Positions 8,721-45,900 of a stretch of 64,000 bases of DNA are shown here, piece by piece. The stretch is from Tubiluchus corallicola (taxonomy: Eukaryota > Animalia > Priapulida). Within the stretch, counting starts at the first letter, position 1. The number at the start of each line of letters is the position of its first letter. Below the pieces are notes generated by a model, which saw only the letters and a program-made list of their open reading frames with translations, was not told where the DNA came from and made no database searches. The stretch is taken from positions 62,001 to 126,000 of the forward strand of contig JAQGDQ010000149.1 in NCBI GenBank assembly GCA_030141605.1, read 5' to 3'. A program made the position numbers and the translations under genes.

Positions 8721-8909
8721 CAATTATTGCAATGCTGCAAAAACATGAGTTTTACAATTTACTTAAATAACCTACTTAAATCTAATAAGAAATTATATGC
8801 TCTTATGAAATAATATTTTATGTTACAACTACAATGAACTAGTAAAAACACAAAACCTAAATAATTACAAACGGGACAATCAAAGCACAATGTTTATCCA
8901 GCACTCACA

Positions 8910-20628: not shown

Positions 20629-20740
20629 GCACAATATAAATCAGGGGAAGAAAAGAAAATTTATATATGCACAATATAAATCAGGGGAAGAAAAGAAAAT
20701 TTATATATGCACAATATAAATCAGGGGAAGAAAAGAAAAT
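20629..20740. repeat. 40-bp tandem repeat, ~2.8 identical copies
   Basis: Unit GCACAATATAAATCAGGGGAAGAAAAGAAAATTTATATAT, repeated head to tail with no spacers. Confidence 0.95.
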
Positions 20741-21918
20741 GTTAAACTATGTCTCAAAAACTTTCCATGCAAAATTATATTACTTAGCATTTCGCTTACC
20801 TGTTTGAAAGACTTATGTAACTAGAAAAGGAAATATTAATTATTTAAAATGCTTTTGGGCAATTGGTAAAATGTCACTGACTCACCCTCCAGGGTGCACC
20901 GCTCACTAATCAAAAACATGTTTTTAATCTTTTTGACAGTATATAGTAATTCAATATTTTACTTAGTTAGTGACGTGTGCACTACAAATGGGTTCAATAT
21001 TTTTCAAACTTTACACAATGTTATCTGAACTTTTTGAAATGGCTACATCTAACTGCCATCACGGGAGTTTACATTTACATGTTTTATACAGCGTTACTGT
21101 CAGTTCCCACAAGTCCAGTATGCACAAACGCAGTGTGTAAGTGGTGTAAAATTTCAAGACGAATTTTTTAAGCTTCATGTAAGTGGAGGGTTTTCTTGTG
21201 CTTTAACCTAGCTAATTAAATAATTTATTTATATGAAGCAAAACGAATTTATATTTAGAGATGTATTATTCATTTTCAAATGTTGCCAATTTGCAAAAGT
21301 GTTCAAAACACTACACTGACGTATAGAAATTTATTTAAAATTAAATTAATAAAGCAGCTGATCAGTTTTAATTAAGATTCGGAAAAAGTCGTTGAAGTAA
21401 ATGGATAACATGTAGCAATAAAAAGTTTATGAGCAAAATTAATATCGTCCTTCTGCTTTACCAGTTTCACTAATGGTCAGGTTTTTAGTCTCTTGATTTA
21501 ATGTATTCAACATGAATTTCATTCAATGTTAAGAGCTAAAATTTCCTTATTGATATGTTAATGTGGTAGACTTTGTGAGCTTGATAACATATTTTTGAAT
21601 GTTATTGCATGAACTTGCAAGTCTATTCTTTAGTTCCAGCACAAAATTACAAAATTGAAAACTGAGACACTTATTTTATGTGAGCATTTTGTGTGACAGA
21701 ACTATATGTGGCTCTTAAAAATTTGCTTAGAAACCTTTTATTCTAATAGGAAACTATACCTTGAACTTGCAGCCCTGTGGCCTGTAAGTTTTTTTTTTCA
21801 CGTTATGGGTTATCAATGTCTTTCGATGTAGTGCAAACATGTTATAAAGAACCTGGTAAGTTATATTTGAAGATTGCATAATTTTTACATGCAAATTTTT
21901 ATTGTGTTTCAGCGTGGC

Positions 21919-21960
21919 ATGCCTCAGAGAAAGAGCCGTGTCTATGGCCGACCAACCTAG
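21919..21960 (+). promoter_or_regulatory. Upstream ORF ([13 protein letters not shown]) overlapping the TRIP12 start codon out of frame
   Basis: ATG at 21919 (GGCATGC, purine at -3) lies 6 nt inside the exon that begins at 21913 and 25 nt before the main ATG at 21944. It stops at TAG 21958-21960. Confidence 0.75.
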
Positions 21961-24900
21961 ATACCATCCAGGGGGGTCATTACGACGGCACACACGTCAT
22001 TCTTCTGGAAAAAGTTCTGAAAGTAATAGGTAAGCATTTGTATCATATAGCAACAGGTTTAGTATGCAGATAAACTGCTCTGTGAAAGGAAAAATAACAA
22101 GGATCCTAGAGAATACAGCATGATGTTTTACAATGCTTTTGATATATAGCTACATATAGTCCTCAAAGTGTGTGTGTGTATGTGCTTGAGTAACAATTTT
22201 AGCCAAGTAAGTACTTTTTTATGAGTAATCCATGGCAGTTTATTAAAAACATTTGTGATGGTGGTTTATATGCATTATGAGTTACCTATCATTTTCATTT
22301 TTAAGTTAAATATGAACTAGATGGTTGATAATGCTGGGTACTCTTATTTCACTGAAAGATTTTTCAAGCAGACATTTTGTGTTCGTGTATTTGGCAAGGT
22401 AAGGTTATGATCCGAAGCAGGTTTCTACAGTAAAGAATTTCTACTGTCTTTAAAAAATGAGGATTAAAAATACAACCTGGATAGTAAAGTAAAACAAAGC
22501 CTGTCAGAATTTGGCATAAGAAAGCTTTTTGAAGACAAAAAAGGGAGGAATTTGCATAAGAAAACCAGCAAACTGGCATTTGGCTTGTCACCTGTCCCAT
22601 TTGCAAAATCTGGAAACATTACAGACTGCATCATTATCATAGCTGATTCTAACTTTGTGCTTTCTGTTCTCAGAGTTTTTCTCGGATCATTGCTTTGTTG
22701 AGTCAATAATAGATATTCAAAAACCAAAATTAACAAGCAAGAAAAGTAAGTTCAGGTGGCTGCAAAATATCAATTATACTGACTTGGCAATGGATTTACA
22801 CAACCCTGTCACTGCTATACAAGAGCAAACTGATGTACAATCAGCATCGGATAATTTGAAAAGCAGGTCTAAAGTTACTCTTCATTAAAAAGAAGACAGT
22901 TACTATGCGGAGCTTCCTTGGTTCAACGAAACAGCATTATGGCTGAAAAGACAAAAAAGACTCACCGAGAGAAAGTGGAAAAAGGATAATATGTGACAAA
23001 ATTGGAATTTATGTAATTAATCAAGAAAGAACTGTTATGCTTATTTTTGAGAAAAGAATTTTATATCAATGAAACAGTTCCAGGGTGTAATGGAGATTCA
23101 CAAAAGGTCTTTGCTGCTATTAGAAACAGTTTCAACACAGGAAAACACTAATTTTACCTGATGCTCTATCCGTCTCTGATAAAAGCTTGCCAATGACTTT
23201 GCAGAATATTTTTATCAAAAAAATTAAAAACATCAGACCTTCTCTTAATAATATCAGATTGTTTAACCCAGTATCAAACATTAATTACATGTTATCAAAG
23301 TAAAGAAGGTGACTAAAGAATAAGTGCGAAAAGTGTTTAGGTCAGCTAAACCATCCATGTGTCGGTTGTATGTCTCGCCAACAAGCTTGCTAAAAACTTT
23401 TTGGGTGAATAGGTGCTGTTCATTATATGGCTAGCAAATTCTTCATTTTCTTGATAAATGGTAATATGCAATACTGAATTCACTAATTAAAAAAGTAAAC
23501 TCGGGTAGTGAATGAGTAGTACAACGACAGTTTCAAACAATCATTCAAGCCCATAGTCTTTTACCAGCTTATTAGAGCAGCTGTCTACTTTTAATGAGAC
23601 TAATGGATGACATCTAGTATGTTATGGAATAGGGAAAAGTCACATGTATGGTTACTTTGGATTTGACAGCCACATTTGCCACAATGAACTTGAAATCTTA
23701 TGCAATGTACTTCAATGAGGTTTGGCTTTTCAAGCACTTTGCTAGAATGGACAAAAGAATATCTACAGAACAGGTCTTTTCAAATTCAAAGTAATTATAA
23801 TTGTTTTGTCTTATCCAGCAGTCATCTATTAAGTACATCAAGGAAGTATCTTGAGTCTTTACTTTTAAATGTTACACAGCTACAGTTGATGAGTACAATC
23901 TAGAATGTCAACAGACTTATATGGCTATGAGGATGATCAAGCCCTTGCCGACAGTTTTATGCTGGGCTGCGTTAACTCAAAGCTTTGTGCAGCAAACACC
24001 TTGGGACGTAATGTCACCACAGTCAAAGAGCAGATGGACCCGAATCATCTTATGTTTAATTACATCTTGCATTTTAACGTGCATCTAATTACAAAATTGA
24101 AAGGGTATTTAACTATGAATTCAATGCAATGTATCAGGTATGCGCTCGTTTTCACAAAATCTAATTATGCAAATTCATTGATTTGTTGGACTCCCATAGT
24201 GCATCTTGAAGCCAATGCAAAGTGTGCAAAATTGGGCTGGCTGCCAAAATTGCGAAAATGTTACAAAATATGATAGTGCAACAAAGGCTTTGCATAGTGT
24301 TCATTGGCTACCAACCAGATGCCGGTGCACTTTTAAAATAACAGTTCTAGTAAATAAGTAAGTAAAGGTCTTTTCTTCTCAGAAAAATTTGGGAGGTTCC
24401 TTGGCTGCTTTAAGATAGTATAAATTGAAGGAATATTTAGAACAAGCCGATTTACGATATTTCTAGTTTAAAATATGTCTATGTATAAACTTACAATACA
24501 TCAATAAAATCTTTGAGATAAATCTTTAGGCGCTTAAAAGTGTATAAAAGAGAGGAAATGTTTGTACTAAATAAATCTGAACTGGCAATAAAACCCAATA
24601 GAGAATAGTAAAGAAAAATATAAATGATAAATTTCATTAAAAATACATTTATTTATAAGAGTATTAGCTTTTCTTTTCAATTTAGCTCTAACAAACATGC
24701 ATTTTTGTGTCTAGGGTGTTCTGTTTTCCCTTTTTGTGGCAGGAGATTGTGAAGTAGATGGGTCGACTCGCTTACTAGTGAATAATTTTGCATGTTTTTT
24801 TCAATGATAATGCTTTTGGTCCTGCATCTGAGTATTCCACTTCCCCTTTCACCCTATTCCATATATTTTCTATCAATTTGAATTCATCTGCCATCAAACA

Positions 24901-27900
24901 ATTCTGCATTTAGAGGTATATAATAGTTATGCCTCTACTAATGATTGAAAAAGCATGTTTAGTTCTACAATGTAGTGCATTTTCTTCACTTTAAACAATT
25001 TAACCTGCAAAGCATAGCATGGATGGCTAAACATACTTGGCTGATCATTTACATTTTTGTGTATGTAACAAGAACACAAGAGCTAACAAAGCAAATGAAT
25101 TAGAACTTGTAGTGCCTTTTAATAAAAGAAAGTCTTTGCTTATTTACACCTTTTAAAGGGAAACTAAGAACGCAGGTTTTTAAGCAGTATTTTAATGTAT
25201 AAAGTGGTGAACATTTTGTAGTTTTTTATGATTTATATTTTTAATTGTACAGTGCATTTGAAATAAATTAACGAAAAAGTGCTTTATATATAAATGTACA
25301 TTTTATTATTATGTTATGTGACTGTCATCAAATGCAACAGTTTTTAGTGCAACTGATATATTTTATATTGTTTTTATAATTCAACAACTAGTTGTCCAGA
25401 TAACAGTTTTTATAATTGCTCAGTTTTGCAATGTTCAAATATCATTCCTAATTTTATGGTAAGCTTTTTGAAAAATTTAGAAGGACTGCAACCTTTGGGC
25501 ACCATAAAAGTATTATTTTTTGAGCTTGTTTACCAGCTTAGATCTTTGCATAAATTTGGTGATATAAACTTCTAACATACTATTTAATTTGTTATTATTA
25601 GATTTGGACAGCTCGGCAAAGTGTTAACTACAGATAGTTGTCAATTGCCACGGAGACGTAGAGCACCACTTGAACATCCTACTACTGAAAAACCTTCCAC
25701 CAGCATAATTAACAAACCTGTAAGCTGTCCAACTCCCCGCAAACGAGGACGTCCACGAAAAATCAGCTTAAGTAGTGTGGGAAGTGTTGACAAAAAAGAT
25801 TTAGTACAGATTGAGCCATCATTACCAGCAGTGGTTGAAAAATTGCCTGTGAAGAAACGAGGCAGATATAAGAATTTTACATTTGACAATAACGTAGTTG
25901 GAGCTACTGAAGCAGCCACTGCTTTTAATACAAGAACTGCAGGAAACTCACTATTATCTGATTCTGTGCATCATCCAGAGCACAAAAGTTCAGTGGATGA
26001 GGTTGTTTCTAATAAAAGTGAACAAAAACCTTTGCAGTCTAATTCAAAAAACCTATTGCCTGAGAAACAATCGAGCACTGAGCCTACGAGAATACAAACA
26101 AGAAATTTAGGAGTGCAAAAAGTAAGTTATTACGAACCTGGTTGTCGCTTTTCAATTGGAAGAACTAAACGAAGCCGAGGAAAAAGGAAAAACAGTTCTG
26201 TTCAAAATTGTTTGTCACAAAATTCTGCTAGTCTTCAAGAGTCTAAAAGTAAAAAACGAAAGCCAGAGCCTGTTGTTGAAGACTCCTACCAGCCACACAT
26301 TTCTAAGGTTGAAGAAAGCAGACAATCAGACACTGAAGAAAGCAAAAGCAAGCAAAGTGAGAGCAAAAGATCAGCTAGTAAACGTCATCCTAGTAAAGGT
26401 TATCCTTGTAGGTCACACACAAGTAAAGCCTCAACGTCGTCTGCTGAAGCTACTAGTGCTGCAAGTTGCTCACATAGTGCTTTAAGCACTAGTAAGCAAA
26501 CATTTAGTGTTCCAATTAAAAAACGTGCAGTAAATTTATTGGACGAAGTTAAATCAGATACTCAGAGAACTAAGAAGGCCAAAATTAAAAAAGAAGCAAG
26601 TCTCGCTGAACCTCGAAATTTGAGGAGCAGTACTCGGGCAACTAAGATCACGGGCTCGTGTGCTAGCAGCAGGTAATAAATTAACCAGTGTTTGATATAG
26701 TCGACTTCTTATATATATGTTTCTGCTTAAAAATTTGCATTATGGAATTTGTTTAGTTTAGATTTGTGAGTTATACATATTTTCCAAGTGCTTGTTTTTA
26801 TTCATGTAGGCGGCGGTCCTCCAGTGTACGGAAAGTGACACCAAGTGACGCCACGGGTAATACAGGGGGGACTAGCCGTCACCAGCCGGCACAGCAGCAA
26901 ACTACAATGTCGAGGCAGGAGCCGGCAGTGGAATCTGGTGCACCCGCTGGTTGCAGTGATGCTGGAGCTAGTTCACAAGGAGCAGCAGGTATTGCATCGC
27001 GTGCGACATATTATCGTATATATTAACTTCGCTGGTATATACATATATATATATATATATATATAACCGACGAGGCTACAGTTTTGACGACGGCACCATT
27101 TTCAGCGATCTATATGTCAAATGAAGGTCTCCACTCATAGGTTCGCATTGGGGGTTTATTTTTCGAATTGGGCCCACCGGGAGGAACAGAGGCCAAAAAA
27201 TCCCCTAAAGTGGTCATTTTTTGCCCATTTTTTGCAAAACTTATACCTCTTATTTCTAGAGAATGGGAACGTTTCGGGGGAGGTGCCAGTAATGGTTACA
27301 TAGCCCATTGGATAACGGTGGGCGTAATAGTCAGATTAAGCTGGAGGGCCACGAATACCCCGCTACTGGCATTTTCCTAGAATTTTGTAGAAAACTGATC
27401 AAACAGCCTCCAGAAAAATTCAGCTTATGCAACTGTTCGGACATGTTAGGAAAAAATAAGTACAGTCGCAGAAAGAGGACAAAATGATCTACAAGTTTTT
27501 TGGGAGAGAGATCCATTAGACGGAACGGGAAAATTGTATTTCAACATTATTTTTCATCAACCCCTCTAAGCTATTTGGAACAAACATTGCCTTCGACTTT
27601 GAGAAATTTTGCGGCTGTTCCAGGTATTGTTGTCACCTGCCATTCTACAGTGTTATAGATTTTACATGTAAGTAAGTTGCGTTAGCCTATTATCATCTGG
27701 GAAGCAGCAAACAGAATTATGTAGAATATCCGTGCATTATTGATCATTGATAGGAAGACTAAGAGCATTTATTATAGCACACAGTTTCGACTTTGTGCAA
27801 AATGTTCTGAATGGTTTTGCTGTGATTCTGTATTGTTGGTGCTGGTGTCATCACCATTGGCGTCATCATCATCATCGCCATCAACATCATGATCACCGTG

Positions 27901-30900
27901 TGATGTGGTGGGTGTTGTGTGGTGTGGTGTGCTATGGATGGTGTAGTGGGGTGTGCTCTGGATGGCGTGGTGGGGTGGTAGAGTGTGTGTGAGGTTGGTG
28001 GAGTGGTGTGGGAGATATGGTGGGTGTGGTTTAGTGTGGTCTGAGTGGTGTGGTGTGGATAATCTGGTGGGGTGGTAGTGTGTGGGCAGTGTGATGTGGG
28101 TGGTGTTGGTATAGTGTGGTTTGTTGTGGTGTGGTGTAGTGTGGTGGGTGTGGTGTATTGTGTGTGTGGTGTGCTATGGTGTGGGTGGTGTGGTGCGAGT
28201 GAGGTTGTGGGTGGTTGTGTGGTGTGGTGTATTGCGTGGGTGGTGTGGTGTTGTGTTGTGGTATGATGTGGGCAGTATGGTGTGGTGTGGCAGGTTGGTG
28301 TGGTGTGGTGTGGGGCCTTTGCTAGTTTGTTTTTATTACTGTTGTATGAATCACGTGTAATTCTCTGCTGAAATAAGTTTCTGATAATAATGATGCCGAA
28401 CATATATCAATTTTTTATAGTTTTCGAATCAGAATATTGTCAAGGTCCAAAGCGATAGTAATTTTCATCTAGTAAACTCTGTAAATTATTGATAAGGAAA
28501 CATTTTAATGGTATAGAATCATTACAAATGATCAATTTTCAAAAATTCTTGCTGACAGTTGCTGTATTAATTGTTGGTTAACCGAATGTTTTTAGCTACT
28601 GAACATCAGCAAGCTGTTTCAAACTTTCAATCCAGACTAAATTATTTGGATCAGATCAGTTGTTGAGTTTAGAGATATGTTCAAACTTCGGCACTGATTA
28701 TTCATTTGTAAGCTGCTGCTTTTCTTTTTTTTACTGTTTAAACATTTTGATAATCTCCTTGGTTAGACGTCACTGTGTTTGTACGTCAAATATTTTTGAC
28801 ATGTTATAGCTGCCAGCAGTATGGCACGTGGAGCAGCAGGAACTACAACATCTGCAGAAAGCGAATCAGAAGATTCAGAGATGGGGCGGTTACAAGGTGA
28901 GCTTTTCATTCATTAAAGGAACTGACACTTTTCTAATATTCATGTATTTATTACGTATTTCTACATTATTTAGCAGAAATTGTGTATACGATATTGAACA
29001 AAACCTGCCATCTAAGTAGTGATGGGACTGGCCCTTAATTTGCCGAATCGAGGCTCACCCAAAATTTTCATTTTTTGAATTGAGTCAAACAGGATTAAAC
29101 GTAGAAATAAAAAATTGCAGACCGAGCCGAACTGAGTCGACCTAGATGCAGCACCGAATCGGGTTGAACCGCAAATTGTTTTGCCTTGAGTCATACTGGA
29201 AAAAATATACGTTATTTGGGAGGGGATTTTATCTCTTTTGGCTTTAGTCCTCTAACTAAAAATTATTGCCAGCATAAAATGAACTATTTGCAAAGAGAAA
29301 AATTTAAAATGCAGAATGTTGACTGTGATATGGCTGTACTGTACACCAGCATTTTGCACTGCAGTTGTTGTCACATTTACAGTAGGTTGTCGTTTCCTCA
29401 ATAGATTCCAGGAACTTTAACATGATTATTAATTTCAAAGCTTTTTGCTGCAGAAAGTAAGATTGAGTAAGATTTTCTTTAGTGAGTTTAGCTTTTTGTA
29501 GCCGCAGAAGCACTACATTAGTTAGTGAACCGGGTCTGCGGAACCATGTTAAAGCTGCAGGCTAAACTGAGCCGAACAAAGACGCTAAAACATTGTTACT
29601 GGGTCAAATCAAACCGAACAGTTTGGTAGTTCGATTCGAACAGAAAAGTTCAGCAGTTTGATTTGGTACGAACCGGCAATTCAAATGGTTCTTTTCGTCA
29701 CTAGGTCTAGGTCAGCCCTAATTCAGTCATAATAGCTCACTGGGACGAAGCTTCACTACTCTGAAGGTTCGAAGCTACGACTCGGATCCGATTCGGGTTC
29801 GTTATAAAAGTGCGAAGCAGTCTTCATAATTCGTGTTTACTCAGTTTCAGGAGCAAATCCGCTGCCAATTAGTAGTGTAAAATTTATGTAATTTCCCTTC
29901 TTACTTATTCGACCACTAAGAAAAATTCAATTTTGCTATGTGCACTTCACAACATTGACCTCTTTAATGTGATCGCAAGTTTCTACAAAAGTTATGCACA
30001 GCATTTATTATTCGTCAATTCAACACCTGACCAGTGGCGGCTCGTAGCTAAAATTAGTGGAGATGCTTAACCATTGTTTTAATAGTGTGTAAAAAGTAGC
30101 AAACATATGTAATTTTAATGTTGTAGTTGTATTTGAAGATCTGGTGTTGAACAGCCTCTTTTCTTTACTGCGACTTTCTCATGAAGAGCCAACTGTGAAA
30201 AATTAAGCTATTGTAGTTCACTTACAGTCACAGAATTTATTTCTTTGGGATGCAAGGCATCCATTATTAAATAATTTGTTCTAAGCACACACGCTAAGTT
30301 TACATTTTATCACTTCCAAGAATAGGACGGTACGTGGTAAGCACGTGGCAGTTGTTACTGTGATAGACACAGTACTTTTCTATCTAGCAGCAGACGATAG
30401 TGTACAGCGTGTTATCTTAGACATGTGCGCATAGCCGCATGCACACATCAGCCAAACACCACTTTGCTTGGGCTGTGAAGCAAATTGTTCTTCCCTCACA
30501 TGCTCCGGTTCCGCACAAGTATAAAAACAGAACTAAAGAAAAAGACTAATTATATTGAATATTATCGATAATGAGTGAAAAAGGGGTGCTACAGTACCAC
30601 AGTACCTAAACACGAGCCGCCACTGCACCCGACTGATGCTGTTTTCAACAGTGACACAACTTATGCAAGATTTCAGTTATTGCACTTCTAAACACAGACT
30701 GTAAGTTAGCACTGATTATAATACGTTTGCTCTCAGAAGTGATACTGATAAGCCACTGCCACAGCAGTGTCTAGTTTTTTTTGCTGGATTACTGCTGTGT
30801 TTACCTGTCTTGAGGACAGATTTATTTTAGAATTCTGTCTGCCCAATGTCTAGTATACGTACTTGGGCTATGGTGATGATGTGTTTAATTTCCTTTTTTC

Positions 30901-33900
30901 TTGATAAAGTTTAATTGGGTTTAAAATAAGAACAAGCTGTCATAAAATATGTCAAAATTTCTTTGAATTCTCTGTACGTAGTACCATTCTCGTTTTGCAT
31001 AGTAATTGCAGTATTTTCTAGATTCTAAAATCAAAACAAGCTGAACATCAACTAAGGCAAAAACTTCACTGAATTAACAAACTTTACTATGTTTAGCACA
31101 CTACCCTGATCCTAAGATGACATTGAGCTACAAGATTCGTATTTAATCTAGTATAGAAAATTAAGCTTCGAATATTCTGTTTCGGGTTGGATTCAGAAAT
31201 TGTAAGTGTGAGAGTCAGATTCGATTCAGATCTTCGAAATGAAATTAAAATTAGCTTCGAATTCGATACTCTTTCAGAAATTTGAGCTTCGTCCCACACC
31301 TATAGCTCACCACCAATCCAGCATTTCAAGATATTAATGACTAACTGATTATATTAATTTTTTTGCACTTAGTTTAGAATAATCTAAAATGAGAACTGTT
31401 GGCAGTTCATTAATTATTTACGACCATAACTGTAATGTTATTATTAACGACTGTCATTAAATCTTCGAAATGATACTTGGGATAAAAGAAAGAAATGTTT
31501 AAAAATTTTGGACAGAGCCAACATACTTAAAACAAGTGTTATAGTAACTGAAATTATTTCACTAGTTTAATCTTCTGAATGTATAACTGTTGTTCTAAAG
31601 TCATCTGGTATCGGTATCTTTTGTAGCATTGTTAGAAGCAAGAGGTTTACCACCCCACCTGTTTGGTGCGTTGGGACCACGGATGCATCAGTTACTTCAT
31701 CGGTCTATGGGTAGCAATGCAAGTACGTATATGTGTATTTTTGACAGTAAACATTTATTGTTTACATTTAAAGCTAGAAAAATTTCAGAACTTGGTACAG
31801 CAGCTATAAAATGCTATTAAATGCTGCTCTTTCTTTATTTAAAATTGTTTACATGTTGGAGCTTTTTTACACAAAGTTTCTTGAGTGTTGGCTGATGATC
31901 AGGCTTTACTTGTTGTTCAGTATCAACCCCAAAGTTGATTATAATTATAATGGGCATTGCAAGTTACTAAAAATATTATCACTTTTACCACTTTATAGAC
32001 CATCATTTGACGGCGTTTTCCAGTAATCGAACATACTTGGTGTTGTGAGAATATAAGTCAAAAATTCATTTGCATTTCTGCTTTTAATTCCGGAAATGTT
32101 TGATAACTAATTGCTTCACATCTTTGCCGAAGTTCTTTTTTCTTTGATTCCTCTTTCCTTTGCATCACATGCTAATTCAGAGCTTGTTTTCAGACTAGCT
32201 GTTTTGTGCTATTTAAAAATGAAGCTAGGTTAGTGAAACATGATCATGTGGACAGAATTCAATGTTTTGAATATCATTCTTTTGAGGGACCGTATGGACT
32301 AGATATTACACTCGACTAACAGAAGACTTAATGCTTGCAGCATATGGTATACGCCTTCAACAGGGCAGTACGCACAGTAGTCTCAGTTATTATCATTATT
32401 ATGTTATTTATTTCAACCACACTTCTAATACATTTCATGTGACAAAATGTGGATCAATCAAGCACATCTGTAAAAGAAACTGTATTATAAGTAATACCAA
32501 CTATGTAGATACCAAGTTTGCAAAACCATTTAATTTTGAAGCATACAGATACAAGTCTGTCCATTGAATTGAGCCGAGCAATGTTTTGAATAATTAGCTC
32601 TACAGTTCTGAATTATGCGTGAATAATGCAATGCACTGATATTATAGATTCCAAAGCTCAGCAGTTGTTGCAAGGTTTGCAGACAAGCGGTGATGAAGGT
32701 CAGCAACTACAAGCCGTAATAGAGATGTGCCAGCTTTTGGTGATGGGTAATGAAGATACCCTAAGTGGATTCCCGGTGAAACAAGTAGTTCCAGCTCTTA
32801 TCACTTTGCTCGGTATGGAACACAATTTTGATATGGTAAGTTAGTTTAAATCTCAAAGTCAGTAAAGTTTTACTTACTGCTTAGAAAATTGTTTATGTTG
32901 TGTGCTTGGTGGTGTAAATTTTTAAAATTTTAATTCCCACGCTCACTATTAGATTGTGCCATCTTACAAAAAATTAGTACACTGCCTCGTTGTTTAGTTG
33001 AGAGAAATTACATTATGCCTTAACTAAAGTGAATAGAAAAGAATGAATCATTTTTGTGACTTCCTTAATGCCTACATGGATTGCTAGGCACCATTGTCAG
33101 CTTGAGATCAAGATAACTAGGGTCAAGGGACTGAAATTTTTGTACAAGTATGGGTCTTTCAAACTAATTAAATGAGGGTGCTGACTTTCCATCCTTGCAT
33201 TGCAGATTTGTTCAGACTTAAAATTAATTTAATTTTCTGCTTTAGTGACATTCATACAGGTTTCCCTAAATGCATATGCTCGTTTAATAATCTTTGTTCA
33301 TTTGTTGTTATGGTATTGAAAGTACAGGCTGACTGCTTAGAATAGATATTGGCAGTTTCGAAAACTTTTTGTGTTTAGATGAACCATGCTTGTCGAGCTC
33401 TCACTTATATGATGGAGGCACTGCCCCGCTCATCTGCTGTTGTAGTGGATGCTGTGCCATGTTTCCTTGAAAAGGCAAGTATAAATATTATTTAGTCCTT
33501 AAACGAAGGTGTAGATTTAAGTGGCATTAGGATTGGTGGCTTGCAAAATTAGATAGATGTAGATATCATTAAGTATACATATACTCCATACATACATGCA
33601 GGTATATATACAACCTATTGTAGTACTTTTTCTTCCAGATCTGCTCAAAATTTTTCAAGTTTGGCAAAGACAAATAGGCAGTTCAAAAACTAAATGTAGC
33701 ATGAAACATTTCTGATTAATTATGAAAAAATTTGCAGTAAAAGTGAAAAAAAGCTCAAAAGTTTGATTTCTATTTTCAAACTTACCACATCATCTACTTT
33801 ACAATAGCTAATCTGCGATCACTTTACTAAAGTTTTTTTGTTTTTGTTTTGTAGCTGCAAGTAATACAGTGTATGGATGTTGCAGAACAGTCTCTTACCG

Positions 33901-36900
33901 CACTGGAAATGTTGTCACGGAGACACAGCAAGTCCATACTACAAGCAGTGAGAATAACTAAGTGCTCATAGGCTAATTAACTAGCCCAAATTTGTTTCCT
34001 TTTACTGCTAAGATGACAGAAGTTGAAATTTCTAGAAATTGAAGTGCATCTTGTGTGGGCAACAAAATGTGATTTTTAACTGCCATTTTTCTACCTGAGC
34101 TTCTCGCAAAAATAAAGTTTAAACCAAAGTGCCTGAAAAAACCAGCTCCTATAAATCAGCATGCTTTCGTATTTACGATTTTCGCAATGGTCCTTTTGGT
34201 TTTCACAAACATTATCAAGCTGAAAATAAGGCTGACTGTAAATAGAAAAGTATGTTTAAACTAAAGTGTTTTACGATACTTTAATAGCCATTTAAATGCT
34301 ATAGTGCACAAAAAACTGCACATTTCTACATTACTATGTGTTGTATTAATTCAAGATTTATTATTTTGATGCCTAGGGAGGTGTTTCAGCTTGTCTGACA
34401 TACATAGATTTCTTTTCAATTACTGCTCAAAGATGTGCATTAGCAATCACAGCAAACTGTTGCCAGAGCATAACTGCTGATGAGTTCCACTACATAGAGG
34501 ATTCACTTGTGCTACTTAGTGGACGTCTTACACATCAGGTTGCGATAGCTTTACAATTTTGTGAAATTGAGCTAATTAAGATTTTCTTATAGTAATTTTT
34601 TTTTTGGCATAACTAATTTCAATTTTAATAAATAATTTGCATTGTTTCATAAAAAAGCTTCATTAGCTGTACATTGTGTCCAAGAATATGTTATGAATGT
34701 TTCAAGTTTCAATTTCTTTTTTATATAATTAAAAATAACATTCTGTAATGTATTATTTGTGTTTTACAATTTTGAATCTAGCACCTTTATAATAGCATGT
34801 CTGTATATGTAAAGCAGCTTTTTTATTAATGGTCACTGTTAATTGTTAACTTAGTTAACAAAAACTCACAGTTTTACTTGATTTTTTAATCCAACTAAGG
34901 TGCAAGATCTTTGAGTCGCTTTGGCCGCAGCTAGCTGATTTATCTCCATTTTCTAATTACATAGGCATTTTTTTGTTATGCGTTATAAATGTTTGCAAAT
35001 GGTGATAAGATAGAATTTAATTATTTTCAGGACAAGAAGTCTGTTGAAAGCTGTTGCATTTGTTTTTCTCGATTGATTGAAAATTTTCAACATGGTGATT
35101 CCAGTATGCTGCTGCGTATTGTGGATGGCACTTGTGGTACTAATGGAAGTGATAGTAAAGACTCTGACATTTTGAAGAACATTCAGCAATTGGTATGTAG
35201 CTGGTTTGTTATATCAAACTTGGTAGCTTTCATGCACTTTTTATGACAAGTTCTATTTATGTTATTTCATAGTCCAGAATAATAGCAGTAGCAAAATTAG
35301 TAGTAGGCTAGTAGTCTATTAGGCATGGATAAATGTGCGAGTGTTCAGAATTGTGTTTGTTAAGTAGAAAATAATTTGAAGAGTGTTTACCATGTACAAA
35401 CTTATTTGGAAATTATTTCTGAGATTTGAAAATGATGCTTGTCAAAATTAAAAGAAAAACAAAATTAGTATCTCATATAATATTGCGGAAAAATAAGCTG
35501 GTGAAATTTGGAATGTTCACTTTTCATTAGTTTTTCATTTATTTTACCTTCATTCACTTTTGAAATGGGCTTTATTATAAGTAAAAATACTTGATTATTA
35601 AAATACTTTACTTGAAGTACAATATTGCAACATTTACCAGAACAAATGTCAAGTGTTACAATCAACTGCTTGAAAGTTTTTGCCTATAGTCAAGTGATCC
35701 TTCTAGGCTGTAAAATGATCAGAAAAGGGATGATGATGATGATGAGTTAGTTGTGAAATGCAACAAAATTATATGAAGCTGGGCAACCAACTTACTCTGG
35801 TTAACCAACTTGCTGCAACTTATTTGGGAATAGACAAATTTTGGTGGGGTGCTTGGGAGCCTGGGGTATGAGTCCTTCAAGATCAAAGGCAGTTTTTTGA
35901 AGCTTTACTTGTTAAGGCTTCATATCTAGTTGTTGTTGAAACTGGCAAGACAATGACTGACATGCACTAGTGCATTGTTCTAAATTATGTTACTTTAAGC
36001 AAGTTGTTGGGGCTGATGGGAACTAAAATAAAGTACTTAAAGATGAACTAACAGACCTATGTCAACTGTCAATCCTAGGCCATAGCCATATGTGGATGCA
36101 CCCAAACCAGTATTAACAAAAACAGCAGTAAGGCTTTGATTTGGTGCAGTAAACCTGAAATAAATTTATTTTATATAGTGCAGAAAGCGACAAAACACGT
36201 AGAAAATAGTAACTGCAAAAATTTATTCGAAAAAATAATAATAATTAACAAACAGCAGTGTTTAACACGTATGCAAATGAGTTGAGAAAAAACGCTGTAG
36301 GTAGATTTAGTATACTATGCATTTAAAATCAAAATTAAATTGAAAATATACTATTGTTGCTTTACAAAATATTAGCAATAGATCGCATATGAAATTAATA
36401 TCGTCGTTACATGATAATTAGTACTAAAAGTAGATTGATTTATTGCTTCTTACGATTTTAGTGACCCTATTTAAACATCACATCAGTCAGTAAGAATTAA
36501 GCGAAAATATAATTCGTTTATATAAACCAGAATTGCGTGTACACTGTGATAGAGTATATACGAAAATGAGAACGACAGGTATACAAAATACAGGTGTGCA
36601 GTGATTCATTTCAAGTGGTAATGTATAGTAGGAATATACAGCCGCATTCACACCATATGTGATTTGTGGAAGAGTTGGAAATTTTGCATGTATTAACCCA
36701 AAGTCTGTTATACAGTCATTATACTGGAAAGTTGTGGAATGCTGTGTGCAACTGCATGCAGATGTCTGGCAGCCAGCTGCCATCAGTTGACATTTCCTGG
36801 ATTCTAGGGTTTTGCAGAGTCCTTGGCTATGGGCTTATATTAGTTTGCCAGTTTCTAGAATTGGAGAATTCGGAAAGAGATTTTTGACTCTCGAACTTAT

Positions 36901-39900
36901 TTGTAATTTTTTCGTTCAGAATTTATATAAACATGCTAGATACAAAGAGCGTCATGTGAAATTGAATATGTGCGCTGCACACTAACCCAAATAGTTACTT
37001 CTTAATGTACAACAAGCTTTGTTTTCAAAACAATGTTTTTTTCTAGCTTGTAGTTACGCCGCCACTCATCAGTACAAACACCTTCATCATGGTCATTCGT
37101 ATGCTGTCTATTCTCTGTGCAAGTTGCCCAGAGCTTGCTGTGAGATTGTTAAAACAGAGTACGTACAATAGCATTGTTATCATAATTTCTAATGCTGTAA
37201 TATAATCAAGTTGGATGTTATAAGATGTTTTATTAAGTTAGTGCTTTGTTAGCCTGAACTTAATACGTTGTTGTGAAAAAAGTTTACAAATGAAAGAAGC
37301 TTTGAGAGTGCACCCTTTTTCAAGGGTGTAGACATTGTTCAGTTATAATATTTATATTGAAAGGATTAATCATAAACATTGAATGAACTGTTTTCTATGA
37401 AGATTGTAAGGCAGAACTTGGAATTTTATTGCTGTTTACCTGCAACTAATGGTTTGCATCTTAAAAAAACAGTAATTTTTACCATTGTTTGTATTGTTAT
37501 TATTAGATGTTGCTGATACACTTAGTTATCTGTTAATGGGTGCACCAGACAGTGCCATGCAAAGCATAGAGGTATTTCATATTTTTTACTATGGTTTGTA
37601 CTTGTGTATTTTTATATCCTTGTCTGTTTTATGTGGCATACGTGGTTTTAACTTATCTTTAGTATTCCCGTACTGTTAAAAACTTTTTTGATCACTAATG
37701 TGTATAAATCATTTCAGGAACTTGTCTGTAAATTAACCAGATATAATTATTGCTTCAGGAACTTGAAGGGAAATGTGCAATGTTTATTGAAATAATTTTG
37801 CAGTGTTCTCTATTGATTTTTTACAGCTTGTGCCAAGAAGCCCACAGGAGTTGTATGAGATTACATCTTTAATAGGAGAGTTGATGCCACAGCTTCCAAC
37901 CGATGGTGTATTCAGCATTGATGCCATGTTGCGAAAAGGCAGTCATATTCCGACAGATACTGCAACCTGGCAGTGGAGAGATGATCGGGGTATATGGCAT
38001 CCATATACAAGTATTGATAGCAGAATTGTGGAGGTATTAGTTAGACATTTCTACCTCAGTTTTACTTGTTAAATCTTTTATTTGTTTGTGTTTTATGTAT
38101 TTGGCATATGTGGAAAGATCTGCTGTCATTATTAATTGAGAAATTTGTCTGGAATTTTGATTGAGTGTTACTAGTTATTAAACTTTTACATTACACCTAA
38201 TTGAATTTTTTGTAGGTGATAAAGATAGGCATTTTTGCTATTTTTTCCATTATAATTTGGTTTAAACTTATATTTATATTTATGTGCTTTATTGAGAGTT
38301 GGCAAATTTTTAACCTGTCAACATTATCAGGTGAAATAAAATGGGAGGGTGGTGCAGTTTGAAGCAGAAAATCTTATGAAAATAACTTCATAGCTTAGAA
38401 GTAGTGCTTATGTACTGAATTAAGAACAAGGTCTTGTACAAACATGTGACAAACATTAGATTTTTACAACCTAGGCAGCACACCAGGCTGGAGAGGATGA
38501 GATTAGCCTGACAACAATGGGGAGGACTTACACAATAGATTTTTTGTCCATGCAGCAAATTAATGAAGATACGGGTACAGCACGACCCGTACAGAGAAAA
38601 ACAAACACACATGCAGGTCATATCACTGGTAAGTTTACCTACTCTGCTCTTTATGTTTAATCCAAGTTGATATATATAATTTGTATTTTATTATATATTA
38701 TATATATCTTTTTTCCATTCTGATATTGTTTTTGTACATGATTACGATAACCATATGTCATGATTTATGTAAGAATTGTGATTATTCGTTATTTGCAATT
38801 TACTGATTAAAATTGTTTTTATTGCAGCTGCAACTTCAAACTTATGCCGTAGTGATTCCAGAGTTGATGTCTTAAAAGAAGATAAAGACCTTGGAGCTAG
38901 TCTGATTAAAACCTTATTCAGTGTTCTTTATGAAGTGTATAGTTCTTCAGTAAGTTTCACACTTTTGACAGTTATTTGAATCTGATTTGATTAAATTCTG
39001 ATTTTAACTCCTTGGTTAACTTTTGCCAGGACAGTATTACAATATTGGTTATGCTTAAAGTTATGTTTTCTTTGTGAATTGTAGTGTTTTTTTGTGTGTT
39101 GTTCATCATTGTGTCAATAGTTAAATATGGTTAATTCATAATGTCATTAGTGTAATTGCTAATTTTTAAATTTGAATGTACAGGCAGGACCTGCAGTTCG
39201 ACATAAGTGTCTTAGAGCCATTCTTCGCATGATTTATTATGCTAATGCCGAACTGTTGAAAGATGTTCTGAAGAATCATGATGTATCTAGTCACATAGCA
39301 GCCATGTTGTCGTCTAGTGACCTGCGAGTTGTCGTTGGTGCCCTGCAAATGGCAGAAATATTGATGCAACGTTTACCTGACGTCTATGGCGTTTATTTCA
39401 GAAGAGAAGGTAAACTGATTTTGACAGTTTTTAGTTAGATGTATGTATTAAAGTGCTTATTGATGTCATCAGCATCATTGTTATTGTTAATATTCTTGGC
39501 GTTTTGGAAGTATGTTGATCATCAAAACTACTCCATTTTGCATTATTTTCTCTTGTGTGCATTTGATTTCTGTGGTGCATCTTTAAAGTTTTCATTAATT
39601 GTAAGATAATAGTGTCAGAACTGGTACTCGGTTCAGCTGTGCTGTTTTTGACACATTTAGCAGGAATATTGGATCATTCTGATAATAATTATTTATTGTA
39701 TTTCATTGTGCTCTGCTCGAGCTGAATCACAATTCTGGTTGGAAAAAAACATGTCAGTGTCTGTAATATTATTTTATACTTGGGTAGTGTTTTTCGTATT
39801 TATTCAGTACATATTTCATACAGGTGTAACACATCAGGTAAGAAAGCTTATGTTAACCGAAGTTCATCTGGCTGGCACAAGTAGCAAAGATTCGAGTCCT

Positions 39901-42900
39901 AGTACTTCGGGAGCGAGCTTACAATCAGTCAGCCAAGGCGAATCCAGTCCAGGTGATAAAGATAAAGCAGAGGGTGATATTGCTAGCGAAAAGAGTTCTA
40001 ATTCACAGTTGTAAGTGTGGTTATATTTTATTGAGTCTTAAACAAACAAATAAAATAAGTAAGTACAAACGTTTTAAGAGCATTGGTGATTTTGTATTGT
40101 ATTCATGGTGACGAATCTTCTGTTTACTAGAAAACTCAGTGACGTATTAAAGAGAAAGCGGACCCCAAAGCGTGGTAGTTCGCGCAAAGGAAATCGATCA
40201 GAGGAAACATCTGTTGAGTCTCTCACATCTAGTAAACTATTTGGCGCTGCTGCATCGGCAAAACAGAGCTTGACTGGACGAGGTAAAACTACGACAGGTA
40301 CGTAATAATTATGTTGTTTCTTTTTGATTTGCTTTAATGGTAGTAAATTCTTTGCCCTAAAACTTTCTTCATTATTCTTGATATCACTATATGTATTTTA
40401 CTATCTCTTATGCGACAACTGTTTGAATTTGTTTGTGTTAATTTTTCTTTGTTGTAGTATATAAAACCTCATGAATTTTATTATAGATATTATAATGTAG
40501 TGACAAAAAATTGCTTACTTGCTTACTGATCCTTATATTCTAGGTAAACTGAGTGGGGCATCACAGAAAACCTCGTTTCTTACTAGTCTGAATCCCACAC
40601 GGTGGGGCAGATCCAATTCTAGTCCTGCAAATGAAAGGCCTTTACTGAGGGTTGGCTTACATCTTTCTCAGGTGCAATTTTGTGATCAGTTTTCTTTATC
40701 TAAAGACATCCTTGTTTTATTTTGTGGAGTGTTCTAATTTCTGCTTAGTACATTTCCGCACAGATAGTTTGTTTACTTATATATAAATTAGTCTAAGGTT
40801 ATGAGTAGAAATATTAAATGACTGCTTAATGTACCATCTCACTGATTGCATTTCAATTTGTTTTATTAGGAGTCTGGTATAATGCGTTCATCCAGTAGTG
40901 CTGGTCCAAACAATCGAGAGAAAATCAAAGTTTGGATTAAAAATCAAGGTGAGATAAGTAATTATTAAAATATTTTTTTGGAATATACCATGCTTGAACA
41001 GCAAGTACAAAAAGTGTAACACGTTAACAATATTAAAAATATATTGCCTTTTTTGTAAAATAAAATAAATTGGCCATTTTAATGAATTTGAAAATTCTCT
41101 AGCTACAGTATTATGAAAAAGTAGACTTTGCCCCGTGTTTTAGCTTGTGTTTCCGACTAAATGTAATTAATTGGTAAGTGTTCAAGAACCTATGCAACAG
41201 AGCATAATTTAAAAAATCAGTACGTGTTTTCCAAATATTTGATTCGGTCTCTAGTTACACTGATGATTGCAGCACTGGTGATCTTACAATTACCTTTTCT
41301 TTTCTGACTTTTGCAAATAATTGCAGCGGATTTCTAAATGAAAAATATTGAAACCAAAATTTACACCAGTCTGATAGATTGAATCACACTGATAATTTAA
41401 CAGAAAAGAATGCTTATAGAACAAATTTTGTCTTATTAACATTACTTTTATAAAATATTTGATAAAACTTTTAAGAAATCGCATAACAACAAATTAAATA
41501 AATAAAATGCATATATGAGTAGTCTTTTTATAGCATTATGTTATCAACCAAAATGTTTTGTAAATCTTTGCTTGCTGATATGTAAGGCAGTATTTAGCAA
41601 AATGCTGACAGGTTACTTGGGTGCAAAATACGAGTATTATATGGCATGTGTCAGCATGGACATATCACAATGCAATACTCCTTGCAATGCAAATATATTT
41701 CAAATTATAATTTTTAAAAGTCTGCAATTCTGATTACCATTAAAACTGTTAATTGTTTTTTTATTGTGTTTGAACTTTGATTTAGGTTTTGAATTTGATG
41801 CAATCCTATTGCTTTAAAGAAAAGTATGCCATTATCGGGCGGCTAAATCTGCTTTGAATTGCCCCTTGTAGATTTTAATCGTTAGAGTCCTTCTCTAGCT
41901 TATGTATTATACTTCGTCAAATACATACCTGGCATAATAATTCACTGTGCACATCATCTAGCCGAAGTATGTTTTAAAAATAGACACCTTGCTTTATAAT
42001 TCCATGTACAAATTCACATTCATTTTACTTCTATGTAATGTACTCATTTTATTAAATGTTTTTTTATTCCTATTTACATTTATAAATTTTCTTTTTTCAG
42101 CTGCCAAATTAGACAATCTGTATTTTAGTGTAGAGAATCATGGTGCCACACATCCAGCCCTTGATGTGCTCAATCGGTTAATGTCTGCCACTCAGTTATT
42201 GGAAGAGGTATCATGTGCAGCACACGATTTATCTCAATGTTATGTTAACGATTACAAATAAATGAGGTTTTTTACGAGTATTATAAATTGTAAGTTTGTC
42301 AGAAATCTTTTGCAGTGTTAAGTTTGTCATACATTTATTTTTTTCTGCTTTTCAGGATGGAGACAAGGTTGAAGCATTATCTTCTATAAGTACAATTATT
42401 TCACAAAGTGATGTTTCTCCATTTGAGGTGATACATAGTGGATTAGTTAATAAGTTGCTAAGATTTCTAACACATCCGGGCAATAGCAGAAATCATCGGT
42501 TGCAGCAATTCCTACATGTGTTTCTAAACTGTCCAGTAAGTTAAATTATGTCAAAACTTATTTTTTGTTACTTATTTAATTCTTTGTTTAGCAGATTTTA
42601 GAATGACGACTGATGAGCTTTTCAATCATTAACTTTTTTCTTAGTATTAAGCTTTTCTTGTAATTTTCAGCCACCAGGAAGTTGTGCTGTGTTTAAATTT
42701 GAAGATGGTGATCCGTCTCTCTCATCTCTGGTCAGTAAACTAAATGCCTGCATCAATCAGTTGGAACAATTCCCAGTAAAAGTTCATGACTTGCCTGGCG
42801 CCGGTGCTGCCGGCCGTGGTACTAATGCATTAAAATTTTTCAATACTCACCAGCTAAAGGTATTTTATTCGTGTTATATTAGATAACCATATTTATATGT

Positions 42901-45900
42901 TGGCATTGAAACATTAATTAAAAAGTTGGAAGTAATATTGACCAAAATAAAAGCAATCTGAGGTTGCTGCTTTGTGTCTGTTTTATTGCATGTATGTACG
43001 TTATGTAATGTTTTAAATTTTATTTTCTATGTGAAATCTAAAGTAAAGAAAGTAATGATTAATTTTAGCACTTAGTTTGGTAGAAACTATTTTGAGTGAT
43101 TTGTATTAAAAAGAAAAACTTAGAACTGACTTGAGGCTTAATTTCTTCCAAACGAGTCCTGAAAGTTTTCAAAACTTTACAAGTCCAGAAACTATGTGCT
43201 GCATTCAGTTCCTTGTTGCTTTCTTGCAGTGCAATTTGCAGCGCCATCCATCCTGTTATAATCTCCGACAGTGGAGAGGTGGTCCAGTAAAAATTGATCC
43301 GCTAGCTCTTGTTCAAGCAATTGAACGGTATTTGGTGATAAGGGGGTATGGACGTATCCGACCAGACGAGGATGAGGATGGGAGTGATGATGATAACTCC
43401 GATGAAGATATTGATGATACAATGGTTTGTTCTACAATGATTTTGTATTATTGCTTTGAATTCTTAACTAGTTGGAATACGGGATTTTTTTTTAATTGTA
43501 GATATGTTCATTTAAACAAGTGTGCTAATTTTTTTGTTGTAATGACAAAAATGTTGAATTCTAAATTTTTAGGCGGCAGTGTTCATAAGCCAAGGTAATG
43601 CGAGACATAAACTACAGTTCCTAATAGGAGACCATGTATTACCATATAATATGACTGTATACCAAGCTATTCGACAGTATGGCTCACCTGTAGAAGATGG
43701 CCACGAAACGGATGCAGATTCTGACCATCCATTTGGTAGAACTAGTATCTGGGTGCAGACACACACAATATGGTAAATGTGTCATTGTTATTCCAGTGTT
43801 TTTGTTTTATTGATGGTCAACCACTTCAGCTTGTTCTTGATTGCACTAAATTTGACATTTTCTCTATTTCTGCTTCTCAGATGCTTGGTTAAATTTTTTT
43901 TAAAGTTTATTTTCTTTTATTTACCTAGGTACCGCCCATTGTCTGATGATGATGCAGCGAGCTTTGGCAACATTTCTAGTGCAGCCACAACAAGTGCTGC
44001 TAGTACCAGCACTATCAGCCCAATTGGCAAAAAAGGAAAATCATCTGGTTTAAATAAAACATCTCCGAAAAGTAAAAAAGGAGAAGATTTGTGGCTGGGT
44101 ATGTTTTTAAAGGTCAAATCTAACACTTTTACAAGATTCCTTAAAGGGGGAATATCATGAAAATCAAGTTAAATTTATTTTATAGTTGCCTTCCCCGTGA
44201 ACAACTTGGCAAAAAAAATTTTAACAGTACGTTGTGTAATTAATGAGTAATTAACTTTTTTGTCTCGCGCGGAAATGCCGTGGAGCTGCACTTACGCCTC
44301 TCCCGGTGGAAAAATTGAACTAGCGCAGCTCTGCTGATGACGTAGCAGAGTGTACCCGCAGCTTGTTGTGATACTATGGTACACAACTGGGCTAAAAGTA
44401 AAGCTGTTATTATTACATTACAGTATTTGACCTTGGGTCGATAGGTGATAGAAACGATTGCCGTTGCGCTCATTCACGTTTTCATTAAATTCTGCAAAAG
44501 TGATATATTTTACTACTGTTGAAAGTTATAGGTCCATTATAGTATATTCTAATAGATGTGTAAACAATCATTGTGCCAAAGTAGACTGGCCTACAGCATA
44601 TTGTGAGAATTCTTGTGGCCTTAATTGAAAACATCGTTAGCAATACAAGCTGCAAAAGTGTGGGCCTTGGTAACAAAAGTTCTTTTCTTGTAAACAAGTC
44701 CTATAAAGTAACTTCATTCTGCTAGAAGAATTAATGAATTTGCAAATACAGAGAAACTCACTGAAGCATAATTATAATGCTAGTGTGACAATTTTTAGCG
44801 ACAGCTTCATTTTATCAGCCTTGACAAAAATATGTGAACCCCGTGGACACATAGAATTATTGATTAAACATATATGAACATTTTTAACTTTGTCGTGTAT
44901 CAGTCAGTTAAATCAGTAAGACTTTTAATATCAACCAGAACTTTAACTGTTGTTCTTTAGCTTTTGTTTTTGCATGATAACAACATGTTGTGTTTATTTT
45001 TACACAGCAGTATTATTAAAATATTAGGATTAAAAAAATTTTTTGTGGTCATTTGGACTGAAATAAAAATTAATGATAATAATATATTTATTATTAACAT
45101 ATTACTATCCGCTTTTACAAAATAAAAAACTAACGATATAATGTGGTTCGATGACAAAATAATTATTGTGTTATTTCAAGCAAGGTTATTCTGACACTCA
45201 TTCTATTACAAAGTTGAAAAAAGTGTATGTAGTACAAAATAATCTAGTGCAATGCTCTTTGTGCTACACAAATTGCCAAATATGCTGAAGTCATTGTTTA
45301 TGGTGTAAGGATTAACAATTTACAGTTGTCAATTTACGATTTACAATGTTTTTTCTTTAGTTAATATTCAAAATTCCGGAAGAAGCATCATAAATAAAAT
45401 TTTAGCTCAAAAAAATTGCATTACGTAATGTAATTGTGATATTTTTATTGAAATGGATACAAATCTCGAGATGACTAAACTGCGTCGATATGCTATACAC
45501 TTGGCTTAAAATGAAACAAATTAAAAAAGTTACTATCAAAAACTGCATCTGACTAAATCTGTTCGAAGTCTAAGCACAGTATTTTTAACATTAGAGTTTA
45601 TCATGTTCCTAAACTCTCATTTCAAAGCAAACAGCCGAGAAATTATTACACAGCTTATAGGAGTGAATCCAGCTTTTTTAGATTTTGCTTTCATTGTTTC
45701 AATAATTTTGTGTTGCTCATTGGAAACTAAAAGTTTTTATATTTTTGCTATTCCGACACTTTCCGTCTGACTGCTGCATCGAATGGCCCATTTAATTGTT
45801 GAATCCTAGTGTAACACATTCCACGGTTGTTTTTCAATAAGAACGATCACAATGACCGAAACCGAGCAAATCACACGTTCAGCACAGACGTCTATAAGTT

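Follow-up and report, generated by a model that had tools for sequence, protein, structure and literature searches.

Conserved AUG avoidance and candidate downstream start codons in TRIP12 of a priapulid and its orthologues

The TRIP12 locus of Tubiluchus corallicola

The stretch analysed here, hereafter the window, comprises 64,000 nt of the priapulid Tubiluchus corallicola (assembly GCA_030141605.1, contig JAQGDQ010000149.1, positions 62,001 to 126,000) and carries on its forward strand a complete gene for the HECT E3 ligase TRIP12. The spliced message of this gene is almost devoid of AUG, in any frame, between the first methionine codon (Met1) and the next one in frame (Met419 in the window, Met2 in orthologues generally), and this corridor is conserved from cnidarians to mammals. 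It opens at a weak start context, ends at a strong one and contains an in-frame ACG codon ahead of a predicted acylation motif. Scanning ribosomes are probably split among these three codons, so that one TRIP12 mRNA would give three isoforms by leaky scanning or re-initiation.

The gene is described by a 37-exon model (21913-57457) with a stop-free translation of 2,114 amino acids (aa). This one open reading frame (ORF) encodes, in order, an N-terminal intrinsically disordered region (IDR), ARM/TPR repeats, a WWE domain and a C-terminal HECT domain, which identifies it as a TRIP12 HECT E3 ligase. Single exons match Pfam PF25579, PF02825 and PF00632, and the protein groups with that of Priapulus (support 99) in a quick tree used for placement only. 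The model rests on predicted splice sites, one GC donor included: exon 33379-33474 is followed by a GC-AG intron, and the frame is open only with that donor. The features that concern us are the following, all coordinates being those of the window.

21913..22029, + strand: first coding exon, with the upstream AUG (uAUG) and Met1; predicted acceptor at 21913
21919..21960, + strand: upstream ORF (uORF) of 13 codons in frame -1, beginning 25 nt 5' of Met1 and stopping 17 nt 3' of Met1
21944..21946, + strand: Met1 of the long, 2,114-aa TRIP12, weak context TCTATGG (T at -3, G at +4)
25602..26672, + strand: IDR exon of 1,071 nt, basic and Ser-rich, with an AT-hook-like GRP motif at aa 75-81; bulk of the AUG-free corridor
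25997..26110, + strand: 37-codon ORF in frame +1 opened by the sole internal out-of-frame ATG, T at -3 (weak)
26650..26652, + strand: in-frame ACG (Thr379) flanked by A (-3) and G (+4); candidate non-AUG start for an isoform of 1,736 aa
26653..26672, + strand: G-S-C-A-S-S, predicted N-myristoylation (Gly2, Ser6) and palmitoylation (Cys4) motif, its role suggested by the acylation consensus
26810..26988, + strand: third coding exon, with a basic cluster continuing from the motif of the preceding exon, Met419 and the start of the common N-terminus
26907..26909, + strand: Met419, ACAATGT (A at -3), putative start of the 1,696-aa short isoform; equivalent to human Met356
28810..57457, + strand: remaining 34 exons, with ARM/TPR, WWE and HECT, common to all isoforms

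No Pfam match was found in the IDR exon. The exon is of phase 2-2, and its in-frame skipping would give an open product of 1,757 aa without the IDR and the ACG motif, resembling human isoform d and the fish records P0211 and P0212.

Avoidance of AUG between Met1 and Met2

An earlier, sequence-only reading of this DNA had proposed that the lack of AUG keeps a scanning path open to an IDR-less ligase started at Met419. Its description is reproduced here: the uAUG at 21919 (GGCATGC), Met1 at 21944 (TCTATGG) and Met419 at 26907 (ACAATGT), 1,251 nt of spliced sequence from Met1 to Met419 with a single, out-of-frame ATG at 25997, and, for comparison, six ATGs in the exon 32648-32835. Its expectation of about 20 ATGs was an overstatement based on base composition. 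The same calculation gives about 21 and dinucleotide frequencies give 13.4, whereas nulls that respect the coding sequence (CDS) expect four to nine out of frame: 4.1-5.1 when conditioned on the protein (P = 0.033 by synonymous shuffling, P = 0.005 with whole-CDS codon usage) and 9.3 when codon order is shuffled (P = 0.0003). ATG density is 2.5 per 100 nt in the flanking intron versus 0.09 in the IDR exon, and near-cognate codons in strong context are not depleted in the corridor. The internal disordered region of the same protein is likewise ATG-poor (2 in 462 nt), so the window by itself is only moderately significant. A 352-nt piece from run X2, about 93% identical to the IDR exon, is uninformative: inspection of 21 listed differences of 25 found none that creates an ATG, and only about one would be expected.

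It is the orthologues that make the observation secure. For in-frame methionine, 80 proteins were chosen, one per genus plus the window, leaving aside records truncated at the N-terminus and, where redundant, those of fish, birds and isoforms; 78 have both anchors, Haliotis (no anchor) and Allacma (no motif) being dropped. The protein corridor was taken from the first Met to the TGSCAS motif, and 68 of these proteins supplied their internal IDR as control. Methionine makes up 16 of 26,929 corridor residues (0.06%) versus 197 of 13,260 in the control (1.49%), a 25-fold depletion matched by no other residue, and 63 of 78 corridors are free of it where about one would be expected. Ten of the 16 exceptional residues are no farther than about 50 positions from the annotated start. 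The next Met follows 24-69 aa past the motif, and in 72 of 78 proteins the residue after it is Ser or Ala. The same pattern occurs in 104 of 105 further records, drawn from an id range made up almost wholly of tetrapods; the fit extends to cnidarians (Rhopilema, Clytia, Pocillopora), to a crinoid and to flies, with Glossina lacking Met from residue 2 to 1,120 (1,119 aa).

Three records illustrate how the region varies. A Parasteatoda paralogue (P0440), a natural control, has lost the motif and has six Met in the first 381 residues after Met1. In a jellyfish gene model with a foreign rhodanese-like N-terminus fused to it (P0214), Met content is normal in the foreign part only. Priapulus and a relative (P0148 and P0143), the closest to the window, differ from it at the N-terminus (Met1, Met7), and their depletion in the dipeptide comparison described next is weak or absent; they retain the motif and the Met-free corridor.

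Avoidance extends to the other frames. An AUG in frame +1 requires D, N, H or Y followed by V, A, D, E or G in the protein, and across the 78 corridors such dipeptides number 352 against 777 expected (0.45), with 77 of 78 corridors below expectation; the ratio is 0.94 for the reversed pairs and 1.04 in the internal IDR. At the nucleotide level, a metagenome-contig scan gave 80 loci, of which nine are contiguous transcript-like contigs with both Met1 and Met2; with the window these make ten mRNAs, the remainder being partial or genomic contigs, L015 (a duplicate of L014) and L001 (no Met1 found). Their 9,702 nt of corridor hold five out-of-frame ATGs, compared with 21.7 expected under synonymous shuffling and 58.8 under codon-order shuffling (138 in all frames by base composition), and ATG is the most depleted trinucleotide of the corridor. 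Codon choice follows the same rule. NAT and NAC stand at 5:23 before G and at 189:136 elsewhere in the corridor (P = 4e-5), a bias reversed downstream, and an A-ending codon never precedes TGN in the corridor (0 of 32, versus 80 of 273 downstream). The edge lies at Met2: summed over the ten mRNAs there are no out-of-frame ATGs in the 400 nt before it and 16 in the 100 nt after it.

Avoidance that depends on order and on synonymous choice, and that ends at Met2, points to selection on AUG nucleotides in all frames and not on methionine. The loss of out-of-frame AUGs would make sense only if ribosomes must arrive downstream, which suggests that a scanning lane is kept open. Normal or composition-explained out-of-frame counts in orthologues, named beforehand as an outcome that would undo the proposal, did not occur; in the comparison of animal mRNAs with synonymous shuffles, which the sequence-only reading had put forward, the depletion holds.

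Start contexts, the uORF and a conserved ACG codon

Met1 has a pyrimidine at -3 in all ten mRNAs. Met2 has a purine there in 10/10 mRNAs and 12/13 partial loci, against a background of 58% for internal Met codons. A conserved weak first AUG, no AUG between and a conserved strong in-frame AUG are the configuration expected of a leaky-scanning, N-truncated proteoform. A uAUG in frame -1 overlaps Met1 in eight of the ten (at -25 in six, also at -28 and -40), with its stop at +17 or +35. Database proteins extended upstream in frame have Cys at -8/-9 after Ala or Val in five of six cases, one mammal included (Pro at -1, Val-Cys at -9/-8), residues that fit a uAUG at -25/-28, a fit that is indirect. 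Residue 6 is compatible with a conserved uORF stop in 64 of 68 proteins; residue 3 is equally restricted, which leaves the pattern only suggestive. On this arrangement it is fairly likely that the uORF, if translated, controls the isoform ratio.

Within the corridor, the Thr before Gly in T-T-G-S-C-A-S is coded ACG in every one of 26 distinct DNA sequences, from 32 loci (two chance intronic matches excluded), and each time A stands at -3 and G at +4, while the adjoining codons and seven control four-fold codons vary. Given each species' own Thr usage, the chance of an invariant ACG is about 10^-8.6 over nine lineages. At the protein level the residue before Gly is Thr in 85, Leu in five and Ile in one (91 of 92 proteins), each of which has near-cognate start codons, and all 267 motif-bearing records have Thr or Leu there. 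The residue ahead of it is one of T, K, I and N in 89 of 91, where the background is 25%; these are chemically unlike, and all have codons starting with A. In the window the ACG lies 1,134 nt past Met1 and 120 nt before Met419, and the stretch from ACG to Met2 lacks ATG in 22 of 22 loci. We consider the ACG very probably a start. The two-start reading is supported for the Met419 isoform and is incomplete, having overlooked the invariant ACG 120 nt upstream, which likely opens a third isoform capable of acylation and would account for TGSCAS.

N-myristoylation requires Gly after the initiator Met and favours a small residue at position 6, and together with Cys and a basic patch this is typical of dual acylation; the pattern is a permissive one. 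Started at the ACG, the window protein would have the N-terminus [12 protein letters not shown], which fits this consensus (Gly2, Ser6) with Cys and a basic patch and would probably be lipidated. Conservation is complete for Gly and Ser6 (91/91 each; the search pattern itself demanded G and S) and nearly so for Cys4 (89/91).

Calanoid copepods present a special arrangement. In one contig (L018), 34 nt match the published calanoid spliced leader, and two others (L022, L030) have its 3' part or a variant. All three have an in-frame stop 3-11 codons ahead of the ACG, no AUG between and the motif retained, so that in these mRNAs the motif is readable only from the ACG; a longer isoform from another copepod transcript is possible. 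As they stand, these mRNAs (L018:1-145, L022:1-127, L030:1-90) consist of the leader, one or two short uORFs and the ACG, the long IDR isoform apparently missing. In some mites and in Rhagoletis, the Met-free corridor is retained where the TGSCAS motif is lost, which suggests that the Met2 form is selected on its own account.

Elsewhere in the window, broken LINE-like retrotransposon pieces lie at 6919-14118 (- strand) and 9392-9832 (+ strand), one matching Pfam Exo_endo_phos_2, and a near-identical segment of this region is present in both orientations. High-copy repeats, judged by contig depth in run X1, occupy 20600-21200, 27000-28320 and 29700-31300, among them a GT-rich low-complexity tract in the intron 3' of Met419.

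Human data, alternatives and known systems

The human sequence, as the sequence-only reading had stated, has no Met from Met1 to one shortly past TGSCAS, namely Met356. In Table S4 of Benitez-Cantos 2020 (PMC7397870), NM_004238.2 is listed with a start that is conserved and weak (-5.27), and its first downstream AUG is conserved, strong (+11.01) and in frame 0; statements on published sources here and below refer to the portions covered. As the first downstream AUG is in frame and no Met lies between 1 and 356, AUG is missing from the human corridor in all frames. Tables EV1A/B of Gawron 2016 record a human TRIP12 N-terminal peptide, residues 357-372, labelled aTIS with initiator Met356, at seven time points. 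The predicted N-terminal peptide at Met2 is present in one human dataset (Jurkat) and was not found in two others (HEK293T, below). The Met356 start already sits uncommented in two supplementary tables, and with conservation from cnidarians to mammals these tables support the proposed corridor to an IDR-less isoform; that Met2 is used as a start we regard as very likely indeed. Among the portions of Bogaert 2022 (PMC9396073) covered there is no TRIP12 peptide at 2, 356 or 357. The same source gives one low-confidence acetylated start at human residue 179, after Leu178, from HEK293T cytosol, which may mark a further near-cognate start within the corridor. TRIP12 appears in the supplements of PMC11974929 in UTR (untranslated region)-length and pull-down tables only.

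In the human protein, chromatin binding maps to residues 107-325, and a fragment of residues 325-445 is cytoplasmic (Larrieu 2020; 2026 iScience paper), so that both short forms would lose chromatin binding. TRIP12 protein varies over the cell cycle at constant mRNA, for which translational control has been suggested (Larrieu 2020).

From these observations we infer the following course of events. Ribosomes that pass the uAUG and catch the weak Met1 would make the long, nuclear, chromatin-binding ligase. Those that leak past Met1, or that resume after the 13-codon uORF, which ends beyond Met1, would traverse the corridor, scanning over about a kilobase. A fraction would start at the ACG; with Met removed, Gly myristoylated and Cys palmitoylated, as predicted, the product would be a membrane-anchored ligase. 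The rest would start at Met419 (human Met356) and give a soluble, IDR-less ligase. ARM, WWE and HECT would be retained in all three forms, and their ratio would be set by start-codon stringency and re-initiation efficiency. We lean towards the wider view that an ACG-started, lipidated membrane ligase and a cytosolic Met2 form, reached by kilobase-scale scanning under an overlapping uORF, have lain hidden in TRIP12 from before the cnidarian-bilaterian split, and that humans make all three, of which antibodies to the IDR miss two.

Several observations weigh against this proposal. The human 357-372 peptide comes from one Jurkat dataset, by a method unable to show in vivo acetylation, and in the portions covered of two HEK293T datasets, Yeom 2017 (which shows a position-2 start and other sites) and Bogaert 2022, it was not found. 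No peptide starting at Gly330 occurs among the supplementary rows examined, endogenous TRIP12 is described as nuclear (PMC7697007 among the sources), and Denr knockdown does not significantly alter the translation efficiency of mouse Trip12 (log2 fold change -0.16, adjusted P 0.79), by a measure that covers the whole CDS. The window splice model is a prediction only. Vertebrate DNA in the ACG set is represented by the bird-like L008 only, the human Thr329 codon lying outside the set. The lineages compared are related and hence not fully independent. Exceptions to the corridor exist: Allacma, Dinothrombium, P0341 and a spider paralogue have neither motif nor Met-free corridor, the motif is lost in the mites and Rhagoletis mentioned above, the moths P0110 and P0340 carry a Met some 20 aa ahead of the motif and Leu instead of Thr before Gly, and Priapulus is the sole exception to dipeptide depletion (19 versus 15.8 expected). 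The uORF does not overlap Met1 in two of the ten mRNAs, a jellyfish (L014, 93% identical to Rhopilema; two codons, ending at -7) and a mite (L005; three codons, abutting Met1). Finally, no conserved hairpin lies about 14 nt 3' of the ACG (over 12 loci the mean z is -0.1); such a stem-loop downstream of a non-AUG start is an enhancer and is not required.

Of the alternatives, one is that the short forms come from separate short transcripts, whether through an internal start site, through splicing that omits the Met1 exon or through trans-splicing, the IDR exon then serving as 5' UTR and the uORF and weak Met1 merely limiting the dose of the long form. This is unlikely. The calanoid mRNAs with a spliced leader shortly before the ACG would be such transcripts, human isoform d (1,722 aa, PMC7697007) and the fish records P0211 and P0212 skip the IDR, the IDR exon of the window is frame-symmetric, and several database proteins begin at Met2. 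However, the AUG desert is present in contiguous, Met1-containing transcripts of nine other animals and in human NM_004238.2, the weak Met1 context and the uORF geometry are conserved along with it, and skipping of the IDR exon also deletes the ACG motif.

It is also conceivable, if quite improbable, that only the switch between Met1 and Met2 is real and that the ACG is kept as a splicing enhancer, an RNA-binding site or an AUG made by C-to-U editing, TGSCAS being a peptide motif of the long protein. An intron follows shortly after the motif in the window, L021, L045, L055 and L073, and an enhancer would lie about 20 nt before the conserved exon end; the acylation consensus is a permissive one, lineages that lack the motif still have the desert, and there is no conserved hairpin. 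Yet the copepods retain the motif where no AUG-initiated frame reaches it, the Leu and Ile substitutes suit near-cognate starts and not editing, transcript-derived contigs show ACG and not ATG, and invariance is limited to the start-like codon and its -3/+4 bases, while the Gly, Ser, Cys and Ala codons vary.

The idea that the lack of AUG is a by-product of Ser/Lys/Arg-rich disorder or of protein-level selection against Met, to which the fall from a naive 21 to 4-5 expected out-of-frame ATGs and the ATG-poor internal IDR of the window lend something, is largely refuted and has hardly any probability left, since the internal IDRs of the same proteins have 1.49% Met and normal dipeptides and the avoidance is order-specific, synonymous and halts at Met2 within the same low-complexity region.

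The three-start reading would matter for a haploinsufficient neurodevelopmental-disease gene and cancer-linked ligase that is treated as a nuclear, chromatin-bound enzyme. If one mRNA also yields membrane and cytosolic forms, then substrate assignments, early-exon knock-outs and patient variants need re-reading: functional consequences would follow from a synonymous Thr329 change, a new corridor AUG or a uORF variant, and the short forms might survive an early stop codon. The uORF switch, leaky scanning, the ACG start and acylation are each known by themselves; in TRIP12 the way they combine, the scale and the age appear undescribed. Among the articles returned by full-text searches of Creative Commons-licensed PMC and bioRxiv, a scope outside which lie subscription journals and lipidation-proteomics supplements, no title or abstract opening deals, for TRIP12, with alternative initiation, a uORF, a start at ACG or myristoylation. 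The 2020 TRIP12 review (PMC7697007) contains no occurrence of 'uORF', 'IRES', 'myrist' or 'palmit', and TRIP12 is absent from the main text of PMC13404309.

Among known systems, the predicted acylated form resembles the dually acylated proteins. Src-family SH4 regions, CUG-initiated Hck p61 and plant receptor-like cytoplasmic kinases combine Gly2, Ser6, a nearby Cys and a basic cluster, and alternative starts set their acylation and location. TRIP12 differs in being a HECT ligase whose predicted motif is buried 330-920 residues inside the annotated protein. Human isoform d, which skips the IDR and keeps ARM, WWE and HECT, is like the proposed short forms in domain content (PMC7697007); it is spliced, begins at Met1 and, by its length and its fish equivalents, would lack the acylation motif. 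Commercial antibodies miss it (PMC7697007), and as by length it lacks about residues 34-336, they would likely miss both short forms.

The class of genes with a weak start and an in-frame downstream AUG defined by Benitez-Cantos 2020 includes human TRIP12 in its table and not in its main text, and the passages of PMC7397870 covered do not treat the 1-kb distance, the uORF, the ACG or the invertebrate conservation. At the scale proposed here there are viral parallels: ORF I-III of rice tungro bacilliform virus and C'/P/C of Sendai virus have about 895 nt of AUG-free coding sequence, weak and non-AUG starts in series and an ACG start in strong context (PMC3542737). Those are polycistronic messages, whereas TRIP12 would be a cellular mRNA with virus-like kilobase leaky scanning, nested isoforms and a non-AUG start 3' of the first AUG.

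The analogy with CEBPA/CEBPB, drawn in the sequence-only reading, stands insofar as a short out-of-frame uORF lies beside the long-isoform start and, as in C/EBP (PMC11109482), would make use of that start and re-initiation mutually exclusive and leave a short isoform without an N-terminal functional region. It fails in the geometry: the C/EBP uORFs end 7 and 4 nt before the long start, whereas the TRIP12 uORF stops past Met1, and so overlaps it, in eight of ten mRNAs. Unlike C/EBP, moreover, TRIP12 has a corridor measuring 630-1,250 nt across the mRNAs studied (and, judged from Met spacing, up to about 3.4 kb in Glossina), an additional candidate non-AUG start, and conservation that reaches the cnidarians.

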